A DNA stretch of 63,692 nt, filler included, from Stramenopiles sp. TOSAG23-6 (taxonomy: Eukaryota), in assembly GCA_900128565.1 (NCBI GenBank). It is 27 parts of 27 records of this genome, joined end to end, with 100 filler letters (N's around TTAATTAATTAA, not from the genome) between each part and the next. Parts side by side here need not be neighbours in the genome. Positions count along the whole stretch, not along the records: positions 4,753 to 7,028 come from LT638161.1; 26 more parts are not named here. One strand, written 5' to 3'. Made by a program: the position numbers and the translations under genes. Positions 4,585 through 61,509 of this stretch are shown one piece after another. The stretch's first letter is position 1. Each line of letters starts with the position of its first letter. The notes under the pieces are model-generated. The model made no database searches. It had not been told where the DNA came from and saw nothing but the letters and a program-made list of their open reading frames with translations.

Positions 4585-4808
4585 ATGGATTTTGTAAAAA
4601 TATTTCAAAAAAAAAACTTAAATTTGTTAGGTACAAAATTTCGTACGAAAAANNNNNNNNNNNNNNNNNNNNNNNNNNNNNNNNNNNNNNNNNNNNTTAA
4701 TTAATTAANNNNNNNNNNNNNNNNNNNNNNNNNNNNNNNNNNNNNNNNNNNNATTTTGTACCTAACAAATTTTCAATTTTTTTTTTTAAATATTTTTCCA
4801 AAATACAT

Positions 4809-5578
4809 TTCTTGTGATATTTTGGTTTATTAATAGACATGTATGTTTTTTTAATTATAGTACAAAATTTTGTACCTAACGAAAATTTCATATTTTTTTT
4901 TTTAACATTTTTTTTTAAAGTATAGTACAAAATTTTGTACCTAACAAAAATTTCATAATTTTTTTCAACATTTTTCATACAAAATTGTATACTTAACAAT
5001 TTTTTTTTTTTTTTTACTACAAAATTTTGTACCTAACCATTTAAATGTATTGAAAAACAATTCACAATATATGAAAATTATGCTTGGATATTTCAGGATA
5101 TTTTTGCTGTTCTTATTTGTTGCACTTTTTTATTAATAATTCGTGTTCAAAATTTAAAAGTCGTTACAATTTTATTAATTGTATTTTTTGTGTACGATAT
5201 TTTTATGGTTTTTATTTCACCTTTGATGTACGTTTTTTTTTTTTTTTTTCAAAAAAATGTATATGAATTTTTTAAAATTTTTTTTCAAAAATTTTTTTTC
5301 AAAATTTTTTTTCAAAATTTTTTTTTCAAAATTTTTTTTCAAAATTTTGTATAATTTTGAAATATTCTTCACAAAATTTTTTTGGTACATCAGTTATGAT
5401 GGAAGTTGCTACTGGTGGTGAAGCTGGACAGGATCATTATACAACTAATACTGGTAAAGATAATGAGAGTAACAAATGTGAATTTATTCCTGGTGAAAAA
5501 ATGCCAATGTATTTTTTTATTATTATTTTTTCAATTTTTTTTTTTCGTACGAAATTTTGTACCTAACAAATTTCAAAA

Positions 5579-5613
<35 letters not shown>

Positions 5614-6914
5614 NNNNNNNNNNNNNNNNNNNNNNNNNNNNNNNNNNNNNNNNNNNNNNNNNNNNNNNNNNNNNNNNNNNNNNNNNNNNNNNNNNNNNNN
5701 NNNNNNNNNNNNNNNNNNNNNNNNNNNNNNNNNNNNNNNNNNNNNNNNNNNNNNNNNNNNNNNNNNNNNNNNNNNCTTTTTTCCCATCATTGATTCAAAA
5801 AAAAAAAAAAAAAAAAAATTTGAATTTTTTTTTTTTTTGGTTTCGTACGAAATTTTGTACCTAAGGATTTTTTTTCATTTTCAAAAAAAAAAAAAAAAAA
5901 AAATATTTTTCCAAAATACAGAATCGATTCGGTGGTTTTTGGCCAACACGAAATATTATGTATAAAATGTACGAATGCTTGTATAGACATTTTTGTATAT
6001 GTAACAATCCTACTCCTCTTCAAAACCCTAACCCTACTCGGTCAGCTGTGGATGTCCAATCGACTACATCGTCCACTGTAGGGTTAGGGTTAGGGATACA
6101 ATCCAATGAAAACGTTTCTAGATATCGACAAAATACACGAAATCTTGAAAATTATGAAAATACACGAAATCGACGAATAAGTTCTGATGATGGTTTTAGT
6201 ACAGATGGTTTAATTGTCGTTACACAATATGGTTATTTTCCATATTTAGTATTTTGGTACGCAATTGGTTTAGGATTAGCTCTTTTAGCAAATTATTTCA
6301 AATTAACATTTTTAGGTGTTCAAGGCCAACCAGCATTAATGTATTTTTTATTTATTTTTTTTTTCAAAATTTTTTTTTTCAAAATTTTTTTTTTTCAAAA
6401 TTTTTTTCAAAATTTTTTTCAAAATTTTTTTTTCAAATTTTTTTTTTCATACGAAATTTCATACCTAACGATTTTTTTGTGATTTTGTGTTTTTTTTTCA
6501 CAATACATGTATATTGTTCCTTGTACTATTATTCCATTTATTGTCATGGCTTATCGGAATAATCATTTAAGTTCATTATGGGATGGTACAGCTTTGCATA
6601 AAGATGAAGTACGTTTTGTGTTTTTCATGTTTGAATTTCTTTGTAAAAAAAAAAATTTAAAATTTAAAATTTAAAATTTTTTTTTTTTGAAAAATTTTTT
6701 GAAATTTTTTTTGTCCTAAAATTTTTTTTTTTTGAAATATTGTTGAAAACAAATGAACGATATCGTCAATTACGATTACCACAATCCCAGTACCGGGATT
6801 CCATTGAAGATTTATCTATACCAACAAACACATCACCATCTAAAACACGAAATCGTTTAAGTGATGTGAGTATACAAAACATTCAGTATAGTTTAAGCAA
6901 TGACAATGTGAATA
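4809..6914 (+). CDS. Signal peptide peptidase-like (A22B) aspartic protease, partial; exons 4809-4840, 5073-5227, 5380-5508, 5922-6340, 6509-6608, ~6755-6914
   Basis: Spliced motifs 'RH|ENYAWIFQD', 'VYDIFMVFISPL|FGTSVMMEVATGG', 'GQPALM|YIVPCT'. The GLGD exon is presumably in the N gap; the last exon boundaries are approximate. Confidence 0.85.
4841..5072 (+). other. GT-AT intron with four tandem copies of the branch motif
   Basis: GTATGT donor; TACAAAATTTTGTACCTAAC-like units near 4861, 4926, 4978 and 5018; ends TTCACAATATAT|GAA. Confidence 0.8.
6341..6508 (+). other. Non-canonical GT-AT intron (168 nt)
   Basis: GTATTT...CATACGAAATTTCATACCTAAC...TTCACAATACAT; removal gives the SPP motif 'QPALMYIVP'. 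Confidence 0.85.
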
Positions 6915-7019: not shown

Positions 7020-7128
7020 TAAAAAATTNNNNNNNNNNNNNNNNNNNNNNNNNNNNNNNNNNNNNNNNNNNNTTAATTAATTAANNNNNNNNNNNNNNNN
7101 NNNNNNNNNNNNNNNNNNNNNNNNNNNN

Positions 7129-9402
7129 CATACGAAATTTCGTACCTAACGATTTTTTTTTGAAATATTTTTTCACAATACTTTTTGTCCCCTCCGCTGT
7201 AAGTTTATGTGGTAAAATTCTTGAAATTTCTGTTGGTGAAGTTCATTTTGTGAGCTTTCCTGTTTGTATTCAAAGTATCGATGATGAAAATTCTATTTAT
7301 GAAAAACAATTTGGGATATCTGTTACATCTGACGTTTCATTATCATCACGATTGGACATTTTGTCAATGAACAAAATTAACAAAATTTCGATAAATAGTC
7401 CAAAAACGAACACTGTCACAGATACTACATCTTTAGTAGGAACCAACACTTTTATGAATAAACATGAAGAAGATTTAACATCAAGTAGTGATGATGAAAG
7501 TTCAGAATCTTCTACAAATATTTCTACATCTAACTCTTCCGTTAACCCTACTAACCCTAACCCTAAAGACACTCGTGAGGAAGATAAAAACTCTCACAAG
7601 GAAGTAAATTGTTCTCAGACTCACAATCGTGATACGATCAAGAATAAATGTAATATAAGCTTATGTCGTTCCATCAGTGGAACTCAAAGAAAAATAACAC
7701 GATTTAATGTTGTATTTATGTTTAAAACAAAAAATAACAAAAAGTTGCATTGTCATTTTTTGAGACAAATTCGACGAATAGCTACTTCTATCGGAAATGC
7801 ATTAAAATTGGAAGAAATTCATCATCAATATGTAACGAAAGCGAGCTGTAGATTATTACGTTTACGTGCATCTTTATATGGTAAAATACACTCTTCAAAT
7901 TCTGGAATTTTGCATACATTTGGTGTAGTAAACGTGGGCGATCCTTCAGGTAACCCAGAAAATAATCTTAAAAAAGCAGAACAAGCTGCAACGACGAGTA
8001 TTTCATCTCTGTCGGTGTTACAGGAATCCTCAACAAGACCCAAAACACAAAATTTAAGTAAAGACATTCATCCAACATCGTCATCAGCATTATCATATTC
8101 GGAGAGTAAAGGTCTCACTATAGTCCGTGAATTTAAAGAAATTTTTGTTGGTTTAAATAGTCCTCGTGGAACTGTCCAATTTATGTACGTTTTCAAAATT
8201 GAATGTTTTTTTTTTTTTTTTTTTTTTTTTTTTACGTAATTTTTTCCTTAATTTTTTTTTTTTTTAAAAAAAAAAAAAATTAAGGAAAAAATTACGTAAA
8301 AAAAAAAAAAAAAAAAAAAAAAAAACATTCAATTTTGAAAACGTACATAAATTGGACAGTTCCACGAGGACTATTTAAACCAACAAAAATTTCTTTAAAT
8401 TCACGGACTATAGTGAGACCTTTACTCTCCGAATATGATAATGCTGATGACGATGTTGGATGAATGTCTTTACTTAAATTTTGTGTTTTGGGTCTTGTTG
8501 AGGATTCCTGTAACACCGACAGAGATGAAATACTCGTCGTTGCAGCTTGTTCTGCTTTTTTAAGATTATTTTCTGGGTTACCTGAAGGATCGCCCACGTT
8601 TACTACACCAAATGTATGCAAAATTCCAGAATTTGAAGAGTGTATTTTACCATATAAAGATGCACGTAAACGTAATAATCTACAGCTCGCTTTCGTTACA
8701 TATTGATGATGAATTTCTTCCAATTTTAATGCATTTCCGATAGAAGTAGCTATTCGTCGAATTTGTCTCAAAAAATGACAATGCAACTTTTTGTTATTTT
8801 TTGTTTTAAACATAAATACAACATTAAATCGTGTTATTTTTCTTTGAGTTCCACTGATGGAACGACATAAGCTTATATTACATTTATTCTTGATCGTATC
8901 ACGATTGTGAGTCTGAGAACAATTTACTTCCTTGTGAGAGTTTTTATCTTCCTCACGAGTGTCTTTAGGGTTAGGGTTAGTAGGGTTAACGGAAGAGTTA
9001 GATGTAGAAATATTTGTAGAAGATTCTGAACTTTCATCATCACTACTTGATGTTAAATCTTCTTCATGTTTATTCATAAAAGTGTTGGTTCCTACTAAAG
9101 ATGTAGTATCTGTGACAGTGTTCGTTTTTGGACTATTTATCGAAATTTTGTTAATTTTGTTCATTGACAAAATGTCCAATCGTGATGATAATGAAACGTC
9201 AGATGTAACAGATATCCCAAATTGTTTTTCATAAATAGAATTTTCATCATCGATACTTTGAATACAAACAGGAAAGCTCACAAAATGAACTTCACCAACA
9301 GAAATTTCAAGAATTTTACCACATAAACTTACAGCGGAGGGGACAAAAAGTATTGTGAAAAAATATTTCAAAAAAAAATCGTTAGGTACGAAATTTCGTA
9401 TG
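7129..9402. repeat. Whole-contig perfect inverted duplication (fold-back centred near 8265)
   Basis: Identical 359-aa ORFs on both strands; the two halves are reverse complements meeting in a poly-T/poly-A tract. Confidence 0.95.
7184..8184 (+). CDS. NPRL3: NPRL3-like (GATOR1 subunit) internal exon; inverted duplicate at 8347-9347
   Basis: 'FVPSAVSLCGKILEISVGEVHFVSFP', 'FNVVFMF', 'IATSIGNALKLEEIHHQYVTK' resemble the NPR3 longin region; acceptor ends ACAATACTT, donor GTACGT at 8185. Confidence 0.65.
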
Positions 9403-9502: not shown

Positions 9503-11776
9503 AAAAAATTTCTAAAAAAAAAAAAAAAATTCTAAAAAATAATAATAATAATAACATACACTCCTCCAGCAGTTCTTCGTTTCTTATTATTTTGAATAGT
9601 AAATAACCCACCAGATGCTTCAATGGCTAAAGTTTGTCGTAACACTCTCCCAGATATTGTCTTTCCAGCTCGTTTTACACATCGAACAATAATATCAACT
9701 TTTTTTTCTTTTGTAAAATGTAATTTTGAAAAAATATTTAAAAAAAAAAATTTTTGTTAGGTACAAAATTACGTACAAAAAAAAAAAATCGAATTTGAAA
9801 AAAAATAAAACATACACAAGCATATGAAAATCATGAGCAATATAACCTAAAAAGAACCCATTTACAGAAGTAATCAAATCTAGTTTTTTTCCTGCACGAA
9901 TAGCATCAATATTAGATTGTACTGCTTTTGAGTAATCTCCAATTTGAACATATATGTGACTTGGCATATGTAATAAATGACCAGCATCTGGTACAACCGG
10001 AAGGTTACGATTCGTTCCTTTTAGAGCATCACAAACTTGAGATAAATATTGTCCTTGAAGGTTTTTAGACATTTCCATTAAGTGAATGTAAAAGTGGCAA
10101 AGTCCTGGGTGCATTGGATTAATATCAAGACCACGCTCAAGGACGCTTTGAATCTCTCGAGGATTTGGACAACGAGAAATTCCCTCCATTTCTATAGGCG
10201 GGTCCCATAGTTTCCAAGGGCGAAGGTCCATGAGAGATGATGCATAAATTGCACATACGTCAGCATCATTCGGAAATTCAGAGAGAACATCTTTCATTGC
10301 ATCAGCAAACGCCTTATTTAGGTGATGCCACGATGAGCAAGGAGGCCACGTGTACCGAAGTTGCATAGCTTCAATCAAAGCGACTTCAACTTTGGGCAAT
10401 GGAGCTCCAGACGTTTCTCCTTCAACCTTTAATATACATGCTTTCTGTATAGCCTCAAATGCGAGTTTTATAGAGGGGAAACCCGTTTCTTGGGCGGCGA
10501 GTGAATAATATCCAGAATCAACATTTAAATTATAGTTTGGACCATTTGCATAAGATATACCCCAATAAGCCATAGCGCATTTAGGATCATAGTGTAATGC
10601 TCTCTCAAAACAAATTATAGCTTCTTCGTGGTGAAACGCAAACGACCAAACCATTCCCCGATCAAACCAACGCTGAGCCTCAGAACTAGTGCTTGAGATT
10701 GTTCGACTGTATTTACCTAAATCAAAATCATATTTTGTACTACCCATAGTAATCGTAAATTGTATCAAATTGGTTTTGAAACTAAAAAGATATTATATCT
10801 ATTATGCGATACGCTTTTGTTTACCCTCGTAAAGTGACTGATGAATCGTCGTTGAGGATGCTACAAGTAAGAATGTTAAGTGACTGCTTCAAGCTTAGTA
10901 GGGTAGCAGCTATGAAATACATAAAAAACATTATCAAATGAAATTATTGTATTGGCCAAATGAATGACCGCCGCTCCAGATGACCGCTCAAAAACATTTG
11001 AATATTTTTCGGATGACGTCATTCCATTCATCATCGCATCTATCGTTTATAAACTAATCAAAAAATTTAGTAGCTATAAAAAATTTGTTTATTTCGTTCA
11101 CCTTCAATTCTATTAAAAAAAATCCTATTGTAGATTACGTTTACAAAGGTCTTCGAAATCTGTCTCCAATATATTCACACTGATCTTTCATTTCTTCTTC
11201 AATCTCACATAGTCGATTCCACTTTGATATATATCCGCATCCACGAATACCATTTGATTTTATTTGACCAATTTGTACACCAACAGCATGTAGTATGAAA
11301 AAAAAATTTTAATTGTTGAAAAAAATCGTTAGGTACAAAATTTCGTATGAAAATAAATAAAATTGAAATTCATGATGAAAACGTACAAGATCAGCTAAAA
11401 AATTATCTGAAGTATCTCCAACAGGAATTGATATTGCAGTTCCCCAGCCTTCTTGTTCAATAAGAGATATGTATTTTGTAAAAATATTTCAAAAAAAAAA
11501 ATCTAAAAATTTTTGTTAGGTACAAAATTTCGTATAAAAAAAAAAAAATCGATTTTTTTGTAAAAAAAAAATAAAATGTACATATGTGTGAAGATTTCTG
11601 TCAATGATGACATTTTATTCAAGTCCAATGCAACTCCATTGCAAGCTTTTTCTTTTATAGCCATCTCTAATTGTTGTGAGTCTCCACTTATGAAATTATT
11701 TCCAAGTATCATGGATTTTGTAAAAATATTTCAAAAAAAAAACTTAAATTTGTTAGGTACAAAATTTCGTACGAAA
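9503..11776. repeat. Exact duplicate of contig 2377-4652
   Basis: Same ORFs at an offset of +7126; sequence identical by eye. Confidence 0.95.
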
Positions 11777-16623: not shown

Positions 16624-18825
16624 ACCGATTAAGAAACCATCGATCATGTATTTTGGAAAAATATTTAAAAAAAAAAAAAACTTAAATTTGTTAGGTACAA
16701 AATTTTTATAAAAAAATTAATTCGAAATTGAAAAAAAATAAAACAAACATCAATCATCGACATTACAGTAGCTGCAATATCAGAAGGTGTTGGTTGTTGA
16801 ATAATAAAACCATTTGTTGTGAAAAAGTATTTTTTTGAAAGTTTACAATTTGTTAGGTATGAAATTTACTATGAAAAAAAAAAATATTTTTTGTGTAGGG
16901 TTAGGGTTAGGGTTATGAAAAAAAATCAATCATTAAAACATATATGTACATCAGTAGGCTGTAAGTATTCTGAGACACCTGCTGTACCAAAGGTTAACAA
17001 TGGTCGGCCAGCAGCCAATGACTCTATATTTGATATACAATATTTATTATGAAAAATATGTCTGTACAGTTTGAAATTTGTTAGATAAAAATTATAAAAA
17101 TTATAAAAATTATAAAAATTACAAAAATTGGATTAGGTACAAAATTTACTATGAAAAAAAAGAAATTAGAAATTCATGGTGAAAACGTACATGTCTCCTC
17201 AAAAGTTGGATGGATGACAATATCAATTTCTTCATTCAATCTACGCCATGTATCGTGATTTTTTTTTTTTAGTAAAAAAAATCGTTAGGTACGAAATTTC
17301 ATACAAAAAAAAACTCCAAAAAAAAAAAAATCAATTTCGAAAACGTACAAATTTCACCATGGGGCACCCATCCTTCAAAAGATACAAACACTGAATCATT
17401 GTTTAAATCTTCATTACTGATATTCCATTTGTTTTCAAATTTCATATTTTTAAAAATTTTGTTTGATTTTGTCTTTGGAAGTAGAGAAAGATTTAAATCA
17501 GAAAGTAAATTTTCCTCAAGATATTTTGAAAGAATACCATTACCAAAGAAACGAAAAATAATTTTTTTTTTCGATTCAAGATTTTTGTGTAATATTTCAG
17601 AAACGATTTTGGCAGCTCTTAAAAAGTATTGTGAAAAAATATTTCAAAAAAAAAAATCTTTTTTATTTTTTTGTTTTTTTTGTTTAGGTACAAAATTTCG
17701 TATGAAAAACAAATTAAATTTGAAATGAAAACGTACACCATTCCAGGTGACTTGATTGGAGCTAGACGTCCAATAATAGCAATTTGTATAATTGGGTTTT
17801 GCTGTGAATTTGTCGTTAATTGACTAAGAGGAGTGTGAAAATTTTGAATGTTTTGAATTGGTATAGTTTCATTGTTTTTTTTTTTTTTTTTTCTTGTGTT
17901 GTACCAAAGACATCTTGAACGTGTAAACTATCTGTGAATTCACTTGATAAACCAATCGGAAGTACATGGCATGGTGGTCGATATTCGTCGGAGTTTGAAA
18001 GCATTGTTGAATTTGAAACATTTAATTGATGTGCCCATGATCCAGCTCCGTTGTGTTGCCCTTTCTCACCTAAATTTATTTTGAGCAAATATTTCAAATT
18101 TCGTTTTTTTTGTTAGGTACAAAATTTACTATGAAAAAAATAAATTCGAAATTGAAAAAAATTGTAAAAAAAAAAAAAAAAAAACATACATACCAATATG
18201 TACATGCTGCAGCTGATGGTGAGATGATATCAGTGACATCCTGCATTGCAATATAAGGTAAATGATCATGCCATCGTCCAGGTTCGCAAATAATTCTATC
18301 AACACCAGCAATACGCGCAGCCTGGATTAAAAGCTGATTATCCAATCCTTGTTCTGGAACATACACTGATGAATATATATGTTTTACATATGAAATTTAT
18401 TAGGATTTTTTTTTTTAAATTATTTTAAAAAAAAAAAATTTCTACACATTTTTTACGAATGAAATTTGAAATTAGTTAGGATTTAAATCATTCATTATAA
18501 AACAAATACATTATAAACAATACATGTAAATATTTCAAATGAATGATGAAAAATAAAGTCAGTCAAGACTCGGAAAAAAAAATATAAAAAAATAAAATCT
18601 TTTTTTTTTTTTTTTTTTTTTTTGGGAAAAAATTTTTGTATAAAAAAAAAAAAATTTCGTATGAAAAAAAAAATTAATGTTAAAAAAAACAAATGATGAA
18701 AACATACATGAGAATAGTGTACTATATCAAATCCTTGAAGTTCCGTTATAAGTGACGTCATTCCTTCAAAATCACCAGAAGTCATTAAGTCAAGTCTTCC
18801 AACAGGAATATCCTGGAGTCGTTTT
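16624..18825 (-). CDS. GT4-family (GT-B fold) glycosyltransferase, partial, 8 exons
   Basis: Spliced motifs 'IGRLAPIKSPGMV|LRAAKIV', 'FEGWVPHGEI|WRRLNEEIDIVIHPTFEET|YCISNIESLAAGRPLLTFGTAGVSEYL'. Introns: 18074-18189, 17624-17736, 17248-17348, 17042-17190, 16812-16949, 16646-16748 and ~18378-18707. One homopolymer frameshift near 17880. Confidence 0.8.
17248..17348 (-). other. Non-canonical GT-AT intron (101 nt)
   Basis: GTACGT...GTATGAAATTTCGTACCTAAC...ATCACGATACAT; using the nearest downstream AG would give TAT-TGA (stop). Confidence 0.85.
17624..17736 (-). other. Non-canonical GT-TT intron (113 nt)
   Basis: GTACGT...CATACGAAATTTTGTACCTAAAC...TTCACAATACTT; removal restores 'SPGMVLRAA'. Confidence 0.75.
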
Positions 18826-19271
18826 ATGTATTTTGGAGAAATATTCAAAAAAAAAAAAAAAATCTTTTAGTTTAGGTACAAAATTTACTATAAAANNNNN
18901 NNNNNNNNNNNNNNNNNNNNNNNNNNNNNNNNNNNNNNNTTAATTAATTAANNNNNNNNNNNNNNNNNNNNNNNNNNNNNNNNNNNNNNNNNNNNGTACG
19001 AAATTTTGTACCTAACGTTTTTTTTTTCAAATATTTTTCCAAAATACATAAAAAACGTTTCATAGTAGAACACGAAAAGTATTTAAATGCTTGTAGTAGA
19101 AGCAAAGAAAATTTTGATCATGAAGAAAAATATTCAAATAAAGATGTGGACTCTTCAGAAACTGAGCAGGTATGTTTTATTTATTTTTTTTTTTTCAATT
19201 TCGAATTTTTTTTTCGTACGAAATTTTGTACCTAACAATTTTTTTTTTTGAAATATTTTTCCAAAATACAT

Positions 19272-19676: not shown

Positions 19677-21166
19677 TTAATTATCTGATAATCGAAGTTC
19701 ACTAATAGGAAATGACACAGCAGCACTTATTATTGGCAAGTTACTTTCTTGATCAAGTACAAAAACTTTTACAACTCCAGCTGCGCCCTGTGGATGAACT
19801 GAGATTACACCAACATCATAATTATATAAAATGTCAGGTACCATAGCGGGAATTAGAATTGAAGGCTTTCGCATGGAGTACAAGGAATGCTTATAACCGA
19901 ATGTAACCTGTGTATTATATAAAGCATTTTTGCCAGTGTTTCGAATCTTCAAGCGTAACTGGAATAGCGGACCCAAGCCTCTTATTTCGACAGTTATATT
20001 TACAGAAGCTTGCTTGGCATACGACATTGGTCCGTTACCGTGAGATATTAGTTTTACGTACGATCTTGCAGAATCCAACCTGAGTTTTGAAAGATCCCTC
20101 TGAAATACTCGATGCATCTCTACAGCTTGTTCTCGCTCTCGATCTGTTTGATTAACATACAATCGGGTCTTTTTTGGTAGATTCAATGGAATGTTCTGTT
20201 CAGGAGGAGGACCAGTTAAAATTCCAGCCGTACTTAAAGATGCTTGTCGGCGGAACACTCGTATGCTACAGGCATGTATTTTGAAAAAATATTTCAAAAA
20301 AAATCGTTAGGTACAAAATTCCGTACGAAAAAAAAATGGAAATTAAAAAATTAAAACATACACCACTACGATGCGTAAGTGCTAAACAACATTCTTCTCT
20401 ACCATAGTGACCACATTGCATTCCCATGACAACATCATCAACCTTAAATGAGTCTAAACAAAGCTTATTCTTATATAAACGAATGTGTATTGTGAGAAAT
20501 ATTTTCTTTTAGTAAAAAAAATACATTAGGAACGACCGTTTTTGTAAAACATAAAAAGGATTGATGAAAATATATTGAATAAAAACTCAAAAAAAAAAAA
20601 ATCTCGAGGAAAAAAAGTTTTTGAAAAAATTGAAAATTCATGATAAAAACAAACTTCACCATTTACCAAAGCAACTAATAAAGCTCTATCTCTTTCCTGT
20701 TTCCCCCTTTTAAAGAGAGCCATATTTGTAATTGCAGCAGGCATTTTTAAAGAATAAATTTTGTTGCCTTTTACATTAAAACAATGAATTACACTGTTAC
20801 TGTATTGTGAAAAAAAAAATTATAAAAAAATCGTTAGGTACAAAATTATGTACGAAAAAAAATCAGAAAAAAATCAGAAAAAAATCAGAAAAAAATCGTT
20901 AGGTGTTGAATTTTCATAGTAAAAAAATTGAAATTCATCATTTAAACAAACATAGTTCCAACCAAAATTTCTTTTGAGCTTATTGTTACTATACCAACGG
21001 CAGCTTCCTGCAATTCAATATTTTTCCCAGAGAGTTTCCCATTTTTTACTGTAAAAACTTTTCCACCACGAGATCCGACTAGAATTCTGTAATCTACATT
21101 CATTAAACCAATAGAAGCAAGAAAAACAGGGACAGCAGGGATAAAACATTTTACTAGAATAGAACA
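19677..21166 (-). CDS. BBS1: Bardet-Biedl syndrome 1 protein, 3' exons 20952-21166, 20655-20799, 20362-20484, 19677-20273
   Basis: 'LVALVNGE|IRLYKNK', 'GHYGREE...SG|ACSIRVFRRQA', 'GPPPEQNIPLNLPKKTRLYVNQTDRERE...MHRVFQRDLSKLRL', 'GLGPLFQL'. Confidence 0.92.
20274..20361 (-). other. Non-canonical GT-AT intron (88 nt)
   Basis: GTATGT...CGTACGGAATTTTGTACCTAAC...TTTTCAAAATACAT; the first downstream AG is out of phase. Confidence 0.85.
20485..20654 (-). other. Non-canonical GT-AC intron (170 nt)
   Basis: GTTTGT...GTTCCTAAT...TCTCACAATACAC|ATT; restores BBS1 'NGEIRLY'. Confidence 0.75.
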
Positions 21167-21366: not shown

Positions 21367-23637
21367 TACTTAAGCTACCTCCAGCACCTGACGTCGCTGA
21401 ACCAGTTCGAAGAGTTATCGAGCCACTGCTTCCTTCGCTAGTTGTACCCGAGGTGAATGATAATGAACCAGACACTCCATCAGTTCCCGCGTTGGCTGTA
21501 CGAATGATAAATGTTCCACTAGATGTAGTTGATCCATCCCCAGATACTAATGACATAGAACCACCCGTCAAGTCACTACTTTTACCTGATCGCATGATAA
21601 TTCGACCACCAGAAGTTTTGTTTCCTGTTCCCACTAAAACATCGATGCTTCCACCGGCCCCAAGTGTTGCACTGCCTGTCCGAAGACTAATCATACCAGA
21701 GCTACCTTTACTAGCAGATCCTGATTTTAAAGACAATGAACCAGATACACCATCTGTGCCACCATTTGTAGTACGAATACTAAATGCACCACTAGATTTT
21801 TCAGATCCATAACCTGTTGTCATTGAAACAACACCACCCGTCGACGTTGTTGATTCTCCTGCACTTAGAGTTACACGACCACCAACAGAAGTATTACCAG
21901 AACCAACTGCAAGACTAATGCTACCAACCACACCCTTATTTGCATTCCCAGACCGCAACCCAATCGCACCACTGCTGCCTTTACTTGATGTACCAGATAT
22001 GATATTTAGTGATCCAGATACACCATTTGAGCCTGAATTACCAGTGCGAATGCTAAATGTTCCGCTAGATGAGGTTGTACCGAATCCAGTCATCATAGAT
22101 ATTGAACCACCAGTTTTTGTAGTACTCTCACCTGCACTCAAAGAAATACGTCCACCAGAAGCTTTATTACCACTACCAACAGATATACTGATGCTTCCAC
22201 TGGCACCTAACGTTGCATTTCCAGTTCGTAATGATATCATACCACTACTTCCTTTACTAGACATACCAGTTGAGAAGGACACAGAACCAGAAACACCATC
22301 TGTGCCACCGTTAGCGGTGCGAATACTAAAAGAACCACTAGATGTTGCAGATCCATAACCTGTTGTGATAGATACGGTTCCACCAGTTGATGTTGTACTC
22401 TCACCGGCGTTGACAGTAATTCGCCCACCGTTAGATTTATTTCCACTTCCAACTGTAATACTTATACTCCCCGAAGCACCTTTTAACGCAGTTCCAGTAC
22501 GAAGTGTAATTGCGCCACTACTACCTTCGCTTGTTGTTCCAGATACAATCGAAAGTGAACCAGAGACACCATCAGTCCCCGCATTTGCGGTTTTGATACT
22601 AAATGAACCACTTGAAGATGTTCTGCCATAACCAGAGATCATTGATAAAGAACCACCTGTTTTATCTGTACTCTCACCAGCAGACATAACTATACGACCC
22701 CCAGATTCGTTGTTGCCACTACCAACAGATACACTGATGCTTCCACCAGCACCTAATGTTGCATTCCCAGTGCGTAATGACATCGCTCCACTACTTCCTT
22801 TACCAGACGCACCAGTAGATAGTGATAAAGAACCAGACACACCTGAAGTTCCACCATTTGCAGTACGAATACTAAAAGTGCCACTAGATGTTGCAGATCC
22901 ATAACCTGTTGTCATAGATACAGCACCACCAGTTGATGTTGTACTTTCACCAGCATTGATTGAAATTCGCCCACCGGTTGATTCATTGCCACTTCCGACA
23001 GTAATACTGATACTCCCTGATGTTCCTTTTACTGCAGTTCCAGTACGAAGTGTAATTGCGCCACTACTACCTTCACTTGTTGTTCCAGATACAATTGAAA
23101 GCGAACCTGATACACCATTAGTTCCCGCATTTGATGTTTTAATACTAAATGAACCACTGGATGTAGTGGTACCATAGCCAGATATCATGGATAGCGAACC
23201 CCCTGTACTAGTCGTACTACTACCGGCACCGATAATAATACGCCCACCAGCCGAAGTATCTCCTTGACCCACGATAATGCTTATACTACCTGAAGCGCCA
23301 CCAGTCGCATTTCCACTTCTAAGTCCAATCATTCCACTGCTACCGTTAGACGATTCACCTGATACAATAGATACTGCTCCTGACACCCCACTATCACCTG
23401 CATTCGATGTATGTATGCTAAAAGAACCACTAGAATTTCCACCGCTAAATCCTGTTACTAAAGATACGGAACCACCAGTCACATCGGTGCTTTCTCCAGC
23501 AGTAATTACAACTCGACCACCAGATGTTGTATTACCCGTGCCTACTAATACGCTGATACTACCAGCTGTCCCAGACGATGCTAATCCAGTACGTAATACA
23601 ATTTCCCCACTATTACCTTTACTAGTAGTTCCTGATG
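21367..23637 (-). CDS. Giant Gly/Ser/Thr-rich repeat protein, internal fragment
   Basis: Open frame across the contig; ~15-aa 'SGSxSxxSGxxxxG' units grouped into 91-aa super-repeats. Confidence 0.85.
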
Positions 23638-23737
23638 NNNNNNNNNNNNNNNNNNNNNNNNNNNNNNNNNNNNNNNNNNNNTTAATTAATTAANNNNNNN
23701 NNNNNNNNNNNNNNNNNNNNNNNNNNNNNNNNNNNNN

Positions 23738-37789: not shown

Positions 37790-38963
37790 TTTTTTATTCT
37801 TTTTTTTTTTTTTTTTNNNNNNNNNNNNNNNNNNNNNNNNNNNNNNNNNNNNNNNNNNNNTTAATTAATTAANNNNNNNNNNNNNNNNNNNNNNNNNNNN
37901 NNNNNNNNNNNNNNNNTTTTTTTTTTTAATTTTTTTTTTTTTAATTTTTTTTTTTTTTTTATATGTTTTCATCATCATTTCATTGTCAAGATACATTTTT
38001 CAATTTTTTTTTTAATACGAAATTTCGTACCTAACAAATTTCAAATTTGTTATACTTTTCAACGATACATGGATATTGAAATATTAGCACAAGCAGCAAG
38101 GGTACATTTTCATCAAACATTTTCATCAAACATTAAAAAAAAAAAAAAATTTAGATTTTTTTTTTTTTTTTCAAATTTTTTTTTACTAGAAAAATTCATA
38201 CTAATTTTTTTTTTTTTTTTTAAATATATTTTCACAGTATATGTTGCAGATCCAAAAAAAGGCGGAGAATTACTCAGTCAATTACGTAAGCCTCCGTTAT
38301 TAAAAACAACCTCAAATAAAAAGAGTAAAAAAAATGGTATAGAAAAGCAAAACAAGTCAAGTACAAAAAATGGTATAGAAAAACAAAATAGACAAAATAA
38401 TAAGAGTACTAACCCTAACCCTAATGGTGATCGAAAACCCTAACCCTAATGATGTAGATGTTGAGGCACAAGCGGAAGATAATGTGAATTTACCATGGGG
38501 TAAAAAGGCACATGAATTATATTGAATAAAACAATTTAAATTTTTCTTATATTGAATCCTAACCCTAACCCTAATGATGTAGATATTGAGGCACAAGTTG
38601 AAGATAATGTGAATTTACCAATTTACCATGGGGTAAAACACCCACAAAACGCAGGAATTATATTGAATAAAACAATTTAAATTTTTCTTATATTGTACAA
38701 GTTTTATAATACATTATTTAAATATTTCCGTGTTGTGGGTGTTGACAGATACATTTTATTATTTATCGGGGATATTTTCGACATTTTTTTTTACAGATTT
38801 CGTGGAGAGCGGTTATAAAATTGTCGTTTTTCATTATAACCGTCGCTTTCGACTGTGTTTTTTCTCGCAAAGCAAAACTTTTTACTTTATTCACTGTACT
38901 ATAAAAGTAAAAGTATACTATTATACAAGAAACAAAACAAAAGCAACAACAAAGCATATAACA

Positions 38964-42049: not shown

Positions 42050-42533
42050 TTTTTTTTTTTTTTTTTTGAAATATTTTTCCAAAATTCATCAGCTCAATGA
42101 TTAAAAATATGATACAAACATCAAATGACATCGAAAGCCCTAACCCTAATGACCCTAACCCTAACGATCTTACTACAACAACAAATCCATTGTATATACA
42201 AAACTCCATACAAAAACAAAATATTGAAAAAAGTATGTTTTTTTTTTCATACGAAAATTTGATTTTAATTTTTCATCTACTTTTTTTTTTTTTTTTTTTT
42301 TTTTTTGAAATATTTTTCCAAAATTCATCAGCTCAATGATTAAAAATATGATACAAACATCAAATGACATCGAAAGCCCTAACCCTAATGACCCTAACCC
42401 TAACGATCTTACTACAACAACAAATCCATTGTATATACAAAACTCCATACAAAAACAAAATATTGAAAAAAGTATGTTTTTTTTTTCATACGAAAATTTG
42501 ATTTTAATTTTTCATCTACTTTTTTTTTTTTTT
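42050..42533 (+). repeat. Tandem 239-nt duplication of an acceptor-exon-donor unit
   Basis: Identical ORF starts at 42097 and 42336. Confidence 0.9.
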
Positions 42534-53224: not shown

Positions 53225-54250
53225 ATGCCTAAATGGATAGATATTCCAGCACCAGCTTTACTCGAGATTGGATTGTTTCTACCATTTCACGACGTTCTTT
53301 CTCTAAGTATAGTGTCTCGACCTCAGTATCCTCTACCTCTATCTCTTCATACTCTTCACCATAGAGTTAAAACATTACTTTGCCTCCGTGACAAGAGTGC
53401 AGCAAATGATATTGTTTCATTTGCTCAACGCTTCTATATCACGACACTTTATATTTGTGTTACGGGTGCTAATGATCTATTACAGCTATTATGCCCATAC
53501 ACCTACAAAAACAAGCCTTCGGTTCTTTGTAGTATGAATGATGAAGCCAATGGAAATGCTGAGATGGGCAGTATAGAAGCACTAGTTACAAAAATTTGCC
53601 CCCTATATGCTCAACACTTGAAAATATTGAAAATTAATAATAAGCAACAGCAAAAACGTCATACTCTACCAATCACGCCACTGCGTTATGGACTTAAATT
53701 CCTACATCATTTAGAAATTACAGGAGACGTCAGTGATATTACAGCAATACATGTATGTAGTGTTTTCAATTTTTTTTTTCGTACGAAATTTCATACCTAA
53801 CATTTTTTTTCCTAAAAAAAAACAAAAAAGTAAATTTTTTAAATTATTTTTCACTCTACTTTCTTTAGGTCCTACCTAACAAAAATGATATTTTTTTTTT
53901 AAATATTTTTCACTCTACTTTCTTTACCAAATTTAAGAAGTCTGACTCTAAATAATGTTTCGAATATAGATTTAGTACTGCTTCTATCCGGTATAAATTT
54001 GAAATGCCTTCGGTTGGTAACATGCCACGATATTTTTATAGGTTTGACACTTACTGATGAATCATGGGGTCAGAATTTAAAGCAATTACAGATAAATAAT
54101 TGTACAACAACAGGTGGTAAAATAGATACGATTTTTGCGTATTTACCAAGTTTGAGGTATATAGCTCTACCTGCTTGGATGGTAGATGATATTGGATCAT
54201 TAAGTAATATATTGAGTTTAAAGTCACTTCAACTAAATGATTGTTTAAAT
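53225..54250 (+). CDS. F-box/LRR-like protein, partial; intron 53753-53920 (GT-TT)
   Basis: F-box-like N-terminus 'WIDIPAPALLEIGLFLPFHDVLSLSIVSR'; spliced 'AIH|SLPNLRSLTL'. Confidence 0.65.
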
Positions 54251-61268: not shown

Positions 61269-61509
61269 GTACGTTTTCAATTTCGAATTTCAATTTTTTT
61301 TTTTTTTTTAAATTTTAATTTTTCATACGAAATTTTGTACCTAACAATNNNNNNNNNNNNNNNNNNNNNNNNNNNNNNNNNNNNNNNNNNNNTTAATTAA
61401 TTAANNNNNNNNNNNNNNNNNNNNNNNNNNNNNNNNNNNNNNNNNNNNTTTTTTTCGTACGAAATTTTGTACCTAACGATTTTTTTTGAAATATTTTTTC
61501 AAAATATAT

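Follow-up and report, generated by a model that had tools for sequence, protein, structure and literature searches.

A repeated intron family with a predicted non-AG 3' end in a marine stramenopile

The stretch of DNA from Stramenopiles sp. TOSAG23-6 analyzed here (63,692 nucleotides, called the window) contains, at positions 6341–6508, a predicted intron in a gene that by its sequence encodes a signal peptide peptidase. The intron begins with GT and ends with AT. The AG at the 3' end is among the most constant signals in eukaryotic splicing. A sequence-only reading had proposed an introner-like origin, in which a DNA element bounded by GTA...TAC inverted ends duplicates 2 bp of its target, mostly AT, on insertion. 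The intron at 6341–6508 is probably a spliceosome-type intron belonging to a single high-copy family, with a unit of about 100 nt, that accounts for most introns in this AT-rich marine eukaryote. A further proposal is put forward tentatively, as one that falls a little short of being probable. A single mobile intron of about 100 nt, equipped with a non-AG 3' signal of its own (CAMAATAC and any two nucleotides, usually AT), may be the source of most introns of this stramenopile, the spliceosome choosing the box or its position over AG, and the family may have spread without a footprint in the DNA, for example via RNA.

Intron 6341–6508 and its host gene

Five relatives of the host gene product (P0187–P0191) were obtained by an exhaustive profile search and aligned to the window by tblastn. 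The homologues are uninterrupted at the position of the intron (QPALLYLVPCTL, NGV(Q/R/H)GQPALLYLVPCTL); in the window, GVQGQPAL and YIVPCTI flank the intron and the M between them is formed from AT/G. The homologue segment ...NGV(Q/R/H)GQPAL aligns to 6198–6338, and the conserved motif ...GQPAL(M)YIVPC... is regained on removing 6341–6508, with a predicted junction from ...CATTAAT to GTATATTG. The upstream exon is open for 158 codons as far as the donor, the frame downstream is fixed by the donor at 6609, and the two exons join in frame only when exactly 168 nt are removed. Because the frame joins and the homologues lack a gap there, the intron can be taken as real and its size as exact. Exon 6510–6608 matches Pfam PF04258 (Peptidase_A22B) at profile positions 257–283 of 286 (E = 3.9e-4), and exon 5073–5227 matches positions 106–152 of the same profile (E = 3.8e-12).

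The interval from −40 to +30 nt around the 3' cut of this intron holds no AG, so that no GT-AG intron can be drawn here and the non-AG end appears to be real. The direct repeat ATGTAT, which had been described at both ends, is indeed present (Table 1), and because of it any pair of cuts from 6339/6506 to 6345/6512 yields the same mRNA. The intron begins GTATTTT and carries a subterminal ACAATAC (6500–6506) before the final AT. Positions 6453–6469 are an exact match to the 17-nt family core GAAATTTYRTACCTAAC. The length of 168 nt, rather than about 100, is due to the tandem array inside the intron.

Other predicted introns of the gene can be placed in the same manner. The intron at 4841–5072 falls between residues 395 and 396 of P0188 (...INRH / ENYAW...). 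Homologues read P(L/S)IF(G/N).SVM around the intron at 5228–5379, and the PLI/FGTSVMM of the window needs this cut, the conserved I being formed from the exon AT and a T. The intron at 6609–6754 is compatible in frame, with 42 open codons upstream and 91 downstream, and has no AG from −40 to +30.

Table 1. Predicted features of the putative signal peptide peptidase gene around intron 6341–6508 (window coordinates)
Feature	Position	Strand	Description	Basis
Earlier intron	4841..5072	+	four branch-box units; ends CACAATATAT	homologue P0188
Earlier intron	5228..5379	+	GTACGT...CACAAAATTT; ends TT	homologues
Upstream exon, signal-peptide-peptidase-like gene	5922..6340	+	ends ...GGC CAA CCA GCA TTA AT (G Q P A L and two bases of the next codon)	
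Left ATGTAT direct repeat	6339..6344	+	exon AT and intron GTAT	read directly
Intron	6341..6508	+	168 nt, GT...AT, phase 2	frame and homology
Tandem array	6354..6449	+	unit approximately ATTTTTTTTTTCAAA, 6.9 copies	Tandem Repeats Finder, score 127
Family core box	6448..6469	+	CATACGAAATTTCATACCTAAC with branch-site-like CCTAAC; 39 nt from the 3' end	
3' terminal box	6499..6508	+	CACAATACAT (family consensus CAMAATAC and 2 nt)	30-intron end table, alignment
Right ATGTAT direct repeat	6507..6512	+	intron AT and exon GTAT	read directly
Downstream exon	6509..6608	+	(M)YIVPCTIIPFIVMAYRNNHLSSLWDGTALHKDE	Pfam; tblastn to LYLVPCTL... of homologues
Next intron, diverged family member	6609..6754	+	GTACGT...GAAAACAAAT; ends AT, phase 0	frame test

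The intron family and its 3' cut

The context of every CCTAAC in the window reveals long blocks shared by nearly all introns. The signals of the family are GTATGT..., TCAATTTCGAATT, CGTACGAAATTTTGTACCTAAC, and GAAATATTTTTCCAAAATAC followed by 2 nt. Fifteen unit-length introns among the 29 from the window give a 101-nt consensus, GTATGTTTT..TTTTTTTCAATTTCGA.TT.TTTTTTTCATACGAAATTTTGTACCTAACAAA.......TTTTTTTTTGAAATATTTTTTCAAAATACAT. The 17-nt core has 52 matches in the window with two mismatches or fewer, against 0.13 expected from shuffled sequence; five of these lie in duplicate and palindromic contigs, leaving 47 distinct boxes in about 60 kb. For the 3' block GAAATATTTTTYCAMAATAC, where 0.27 matches would be expected, 28 were counted, and for the 5' block TCAAWTTCGAATTT the count was 25 and the expectation 8.0. 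At the same mismatch limit the core box is present in 23 of the 29 window introns. In all 23 the box is at least 30 nt away from the 3' end, and in 19 the distance is 30–46 nt; T runs follow it. The box of these 23 introns carries the branch-site-like motif ...TACCTAAC, with a pyrimidine tract after it, and the branch itself is predicted.

Pairwise identity among the 15 unit-length introns, with gaps counted as differences, has a mean of 0.59 and a maximum of 0.85; five shuffled and realigned controls gave means of 0.32–0.35 and a maximum of 0.58. The five most similar copies (77–85% identical) are located in five unrelated genes. Host genes of the family include those for the peptidase, BBS1, a Mtr4/Ski2-like helicase with a DSHCT domain, a VPS13-like protein and a TPR protein. 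One more copy with the same ends occurs in a gene on an unrelated metagenome contig (locus L002). This locus was the one true family intron among four loci recovered by a metagenome scan with a 20-nt core box, the other three being chance matches. The same box gave only four chance matches in a scan of prokaryote genomes and none in viral contigs. Similar introns at unrelated positions in unrelated genes thus support an introner-like family, and on this point the sequence-only reading agrees with the counts and identities given above.

Some 19 contig ends inside the window have a core box no more than about 100 nt away, for example near 4626–4642, 7134–7150, 19000–19016, 28475–28491, and 61329–61345. 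The contigs end there as if the assembler broke at a repeat, and the copy number in the genome should therefore be very high. Two to four copies of the branch box occur in single introns at 4841–5072, 32329–32169 (−), 32130–31934 (−), 20951–20800 (−), and 53753–53920. Such multiple boxes appear to be internal tandem duplications and not nested whole elements.

The ends of the family were studied in 30 complete introns, comprising 29 from the window, with the duplicate contig at 2377–4652 dropped, and the one at L002. Donors 31618 and 18707 (3' end unfixed), introns cut by contig ends or runs of N, and copies in the duplicate contig fall outside this set. A hand-checked table of introns replaced automatic open-frame finding and consensus picking of 3' ends, which were too noisy in A/T-rich DNA. 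Each intron was taken to begin with the conserved GT and to end two bases past the position aligned with TAC. Under this rule 23 of 28 introns have their best open frame in the joined register, a chance fit being one register in three. Among the five others, donor 32329 has a downstream exon of only 38 nt and is consistent through the chain of exons. Donor 16748 is also outside the compatible count, its exon being cut by N. The reading frames support the cut two bases past TAC, with one firm exception.

All 30 introns start with GT, as GTATGT, GTACGT, GTACAT, GTTTGT, or GTATTT. The last two bases of the exon are AT in 12, TT in 5, AA in 4, AG in 4, GT in 4, and GG in 1. The earlier statement that the exon almost always ends in T is correct for the majority (21/30) and too strong as a rule. 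The last two bases of the intron are AT in 19, AG in 5, TT in 4, GA in 1, and AC in 1, and the next exon begins with G in 15, T in 9, C in 3, and A in 3. The AG expected of U2-type introns is therefore present in only 5/30. The last ten bases follow the consensus CAMAATACAT. Among the 29 window introns 24 end in a dinucleotide other than AG; 15 of these 24 have no in-frame AG from −40 to +30, and 6 have no AG of any kind in that interval. The cut two bases past TAC is kept whichever two bases follow (AT, AG, TT, GA, or AC), and also where TAC is mutated to CAA, TAT, AAT, or TAA. Because the cut falls there whatever the bases are, most introns of the family are GT-AT and not GT-AG, and the family is predicted to end mostly in AT instead of the usual AG.

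Homology supports the placement of the 3' cut in two genes, the signal peptide peptidase and BBS1. In BBS1, relatives read ...THRSG/AVSIRIL... where the window has THRSG/ACSIRVF around the intron at 20361–20274 (−), with a predicted junction from ...AGTGGT to GCCTGT.... The conserved G at this site is made only when the 5' cut falls at /GT or one base earlier, which gives the same reading. The BBS1 relatives also span, with ...NGE/(V/I)(K/R)L(F/Y)..., a single 170-nt intron at 20654–20485 (−) that ends ATACAC, and bridge the intron at 20951–20800 (−) with ...VGT./.NSVIH.

Introns of an AT...AC type, with both cuts two bases to the left, were considered and rejected. They would turn the conserved G at 20361 into D and the conserved I at 5228 into F, and 18 of the 30 exons do not end in AT.

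Two side observations concern single introns. The intron at 9815–9718 (−) has an extra T (AAAATTACAT). At 17900–17760 (−), in the part of a glycosyltransferase-like gene that separates its introns at 18189 and 17736, the open frame shifts near a long run of A; the shift is due either to a further intron or to an error in homopolymer length. A Pfam scan of the short exons in this gene gave no match.

Origin and removal of the family

Each copy would bring its own splicing signals. The 5' site, GTATGT or GTACGT, would be like that of yeast; the others would be the block TCAATTTCGAATT near the 5' end, a near-palindromic CGTACGAAATTTTGTAC that overlaps the branch-site-like CCTAAC at 30–46 nt from the end, T runs, and the fixed 3' box GAAATATTTTTCCAAAATAC. 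The 5' site, the branch box, and the T tract point to removal by the ordinary spliceosome, which may recognize the 3' site by the CAMAATAC box or by where that box lies, and not by an AG. Like introners, the family would have spread through the insertion of copies of itself into genes. Three other explanations have to be weighed against this one. In one of them the copies are a non-autonomous DNA transposon with GTA...TAC inverted ends and a 2-bp duplication, mostly AT, and splicing removes the element together with one duplicate. In another there is no mobility, and the introns are alike through the long and strict signals of an unusual spliceosome, through shared function, or through homogenization, as in intron-poor algae and yeasts. 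In the last the removal is not spliceosomal and involves a structure-guided cut like that of euglenids and diplonemids, a staggered cut on a short end helix that leaves a 2-base 3' overhang, or removal at the DNA level.

The origin from a DNA transposon has several features in its favor, yet it appears improbable from the tests of its two footprints. AT is the consensus of both flanks, GTA is complementary to TAC, many contigs have their breaks within copies as fits a high-copy repeat, and such footprints are present in some published introner families, as far as the available text of PMC9860276 describes them. The terminal dinucleotides of exon and intron are identical in 11/30 introns (8 AT/AT, 2 AG/AG, and 1 TT/TT), close to the 10 of 23 counted earlier, and in 17 of the 19 pairs without a match only one base is different. 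However, random pairing gives 8.9 matches, and no excess of 2-bp duplications over chance was found in these 30 introns (P(≥11) = 0.20, 20,000 permutations), nor with three doubtful introns dropped (11/27 against 8.4, P = 0.13) or in the non-AG introns only (9/22 against 8.0, P = 0.36). The identity of the two dinucleotides, set against a random null as the earlier reading had proposed, is thus no higher than expected in this small sample, an outcome that the earlier reading itself had named as refuting its model. The test applied to introners in PMC9860276, which compares bases equally far from the two splice sites, paired within introns or at random, gave ratios of 1.15 at −2 and 1.12 at −1; the other offsets from −8 to +8 range from 0.71 to 1.31, around 1, with no outlier. 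The five most similar copies, which look the youngest, have the exon/intron pairs AG/AT, TT/TT, GT/AT, GT/AT, and AT/AT, that is, only two matches in five. A duplication had also been offered to explain the variable last two bases of the intron. It predicts the reverse of what is seen, since intron ends are AT in 63% and exon ends comprise six dinucleotides. Because the matching is at the random level and the exon side is more varied, the terminal AT behaves as part of the consensus of the element; AG and TT each lie one step away from it, and the preference for A-T at exon ends is a looser one. The AT/AT identity at 6341–6508 is best ascribed to AT being the consensus of the element end and, independently, of exon ends, and not to a duplication upon insertion. 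As for the inverted ends, the complementarity of GTA and TAC proposed earlier holds, but it does not extend to true inverted repeats. The exact inverted run from G+1 and C−3 in 29 introns is 0 nt in nine, 1 in one, 2 in five (thus 2 nt or less in 15/29), 3 in seven, 4 in six, and 5 in one, so that none reaches the 6 nt or more that PMC9860276 gives, in its available text, for introner ends. The ends are no more complementary within than between introns (150 against 144.8 positions, P = 0.07) and show no covariation; in introns beginning GTAC the base opposite the C stays A and does not become G, except at 38102. Every copy with readable flanks lies in sense orientation inside a gene, and no antisense or clearly intergenic copy was seen among them, on contigs of 2.3 kb that hardly sample intergenic DNA. 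No transposase domain was found among 20 long open frames scanned, no systematic search having been made.

The explanation without mobility ranks second after the favored one, that of a spliceosomal family spread by copying, and it is unlikely. It is consistent with conserved parts that are discrete boxes between A/T runs of varying length, located where a 5' site, a branch site, and a 3' site are expected. Against it, about 60–70 of 100 nt are conserved, the 5' block TCAATTTCGAATT and GAAATATTTTT correspond to no known splicing signal, and copies in unrelated genes are 77–85% identical from end to end, the lengths of T runs included. With its 47 distinct core boxes the genome is also intron-dense and not intron-poor, and the boxes are not compulsory because AG-ended introns without them exist (13533). 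Removal by something other than the spliceosome is the least probable of all and can be given very little credence. The ends are not AG, the cut lies two bases beyond a C able to pair with G+1 whichever bases follow, and a 4-bp GUAU/AUAC end stem with a 2-nt overhang appears in two of six minimum-energy folds. However, the signals present (GTATGT, the branch-like CCTAAC, and the T tract) are classic ones for the spliceosome, the RNA folds of the six copies do not exceed shuffles in stability (z from −1.37 to +1.67), and the pairing of the ends is as short as described above and shows no covariation. No end stem would be needed, because the rule for the cut holds where TAC is mutated to CAA, TAT, AAT, or TAA.

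Several points also weigh against the favored explanation. Splicing itself and the single-base positions of the cuts are inferred from DNA sequence, and homology does not distinguish a shift of one base where the last bases of exon and intron are equal (19/30). Donor 9815 is the firm exception to the rule of two bases past TAC, the frame needing ...TTACA/ or ...ACATTT/, and donors 42233 and 32943 each have two upstream frames of equal length. Copying is suggested by the similarity of the introns, and strong shared function could keep the boxes constant, since the lengths of the spacers vary. The duplication test on 30 introns is weak against an old, half-decayed footprint. For the spread of the copies, a footprint-free route, at the RNA level or other, fits better than cut-and-paste DNA transposition, because there is no duplication footprint, there are no true inverted ends, and the copies in genes are in sense orientation only.

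Relation to known introns, gene models and host

Fungal introner-like elements fold stably. The elements of ascomycetes have been described in the available text of PMC9860276 as lacking duplications and inverted ends, being strongly gene-biased, and being interpreted as RNA-based. The family resembles them, as far as they are described there, in that both splice sites are carried, no footprint is left, and only sense copies occur in genes. It differs from these GT-AG elements in its non-AG 3' end, in folds no better than shuffles, and in its host, a heterotrophic marine stramenopile. Introners of Micromonas, Aureococcus, dinoflagellates, and others (PMC9860276, PMC12130899), in the portions of these papers that were available, are alike in occurring as similar introns at unrelated positions and genes, and in that the element supplies the splice signals and its removal restores the frame exactly. 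In contrast to introners, the family has no locus-specific duplication, no inverted ends of 6 nt or more, and mostly AT ends, and its copies are not near-identical, their identity averaging 59% with a best value of 85%. The likeness is closer to footprint-free than to MITE-like introners, because there is no footprint, copies in genes are sense-only, and the copies are self-sufficient for splicing.

The non-canonical introns of Amoebophrya and Fritillaria often lack a 5' GT and have clear repeats at their borders. In the family described here the 5' GT is kept in 30/30 and only the 3' dinucleotide departs. Available parts of the reports on Amoebophrya (PMC7789003) and the tunicate Fritillaria (bioRxiv 2025.08.15.670264) describe a large share of introns without GT-AG, tied to repeated elements, and a changed recognition of the 3' site (U2AF) has been proposed for tunicates in the text available of the latter. 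A MITE-like origin has been proposed for the nonconventional introns of euglenids and hemistasiid diplonemids (PMC12621601, PMC6221363, both available in part). In those excerpts the borders are ambiguous through short direct repeats and the ends can pair, as here. Euglenozoan introns have no conserved 5' site, G/C-rich ends, and extensive pairing in the available text of PMC12621601; the family has a conserved GTATGT, is A/T-rich, and has pairing of 0–5 bp with no extra stability.

U12-type introns have a flexible 3' terminal dinucleotide, a long strict branch box about 10–26 nt from the 3' end, and the 5' site RTATCCTT. The CCTAAC of the family resembles TCCTTAAC of the U12 type. The family differs from that consensus in its 5' site, which is GTATGTTT or GTACGTTT, and in its box, which is at least 30 nt from the end in 23/23 copies. 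A full-text literature search, whose coverage excludes most subscription journals and supplements, found no description of such introns, and the available text of papers on this stramenopile group does not mention splice sites.

The window consists of 27 contigs, each about 2.25 kb, arranged by length, with 26 linkers of the form N44-TTAATTAATTAA-N44 between them (e.g., 2277–2376 and 7029–7128). Because it is a chain of unrelated contigs, the genes on either side of a linker are not genomic neighbors. The contig at 2377–4652 duplicates 9503–11776 with 100% identity. The contig at 7129–9402 is a perfect palindrome that equals its own reverse complement over all 2274 nt, and it looks like a chimera of amplification or assembly. 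The DNA is A/T-rich (GC of 0.19–0.43 in 2-kb windows). RRM, WD40, LRR, cobW, GYF, and VPS13 domains are found within long open frames read in the standard code; the DNA is eukaryotic and uses that code. No RNA families or tRNAs were found in the window. The best protein matches for two genes are EukProt coding sequences labeled 'GSMAST32...' (P0001 and P0192), a MAST-3-like stramenopile label, and the host is taken as a heterotrophic marine stramenopile of the MAST-3 kind. Among the 21 sequencing runs listed, the share of the stretch was 0.75 and 0.47 in two DNA runs and 0.11 or less in the others. An origin from a diplonemid, prompted by the published non-canonical introns, was dropped; diplonemid intron ends are G/C-rich without a conserved 5' site, and the best protein matches indicate a stramenopile. 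Eliminated sequences of the ciliate type were ruled out by the long open frames under the standard code.

Two contigs at 21367–26006 have a GC of 0.42–0.44, and each has a 756-aa open frame of Ser/Gly/Thr-rich internal repeats with no Pfam match and no family introns. These contigs may come from another organism or may encode a repeat protein. Telomere-like hexamers, (AACCCT)n, occur inside coding sequence and encode N-P repeats at 6026–6097, 32500–32630 (−), 38414–38570, 42139–42400, and about 890–950 of L002 (reverse strand). Those at 6026–6097 and in L002 form an inverted CCCTAA...TTAGGG pair, and one run lies within an intron near 16905 (−).

Public gene models show the effect of these introns on annotation. 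The model P0192 (332 aa), which has the same sequence as 9698–10747 (−), translates through the intron at 9815 (...HMLVYVLFFFKFDFFFLYVILYLTKIFFF...) and also lacks two parts of the open first exon, which measure 11 and 8 residues in the alignment. The model P0001 is correct for a GT-AG intron in another gene. Annotation based on GT-AG would misread the genes that carry family introns. If the proposal of a mobile intron with its own 3' signal is true, published gene models that assume GT-AG would be wrong on a large scale for this group, and the inferred proteomes of these uncultured grazers may be wrong wherever GT-AG was assumed. The family would provide one more lineage whose introns retain the 5' GT but for the most part can do without the 3' AG, and such a lineage would be a natural test bed for the choice of site in the second step of splicing. 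An intron-dense genome dominated by one footprint-free family would also bear on whether introners spread through DNA or through RNA.

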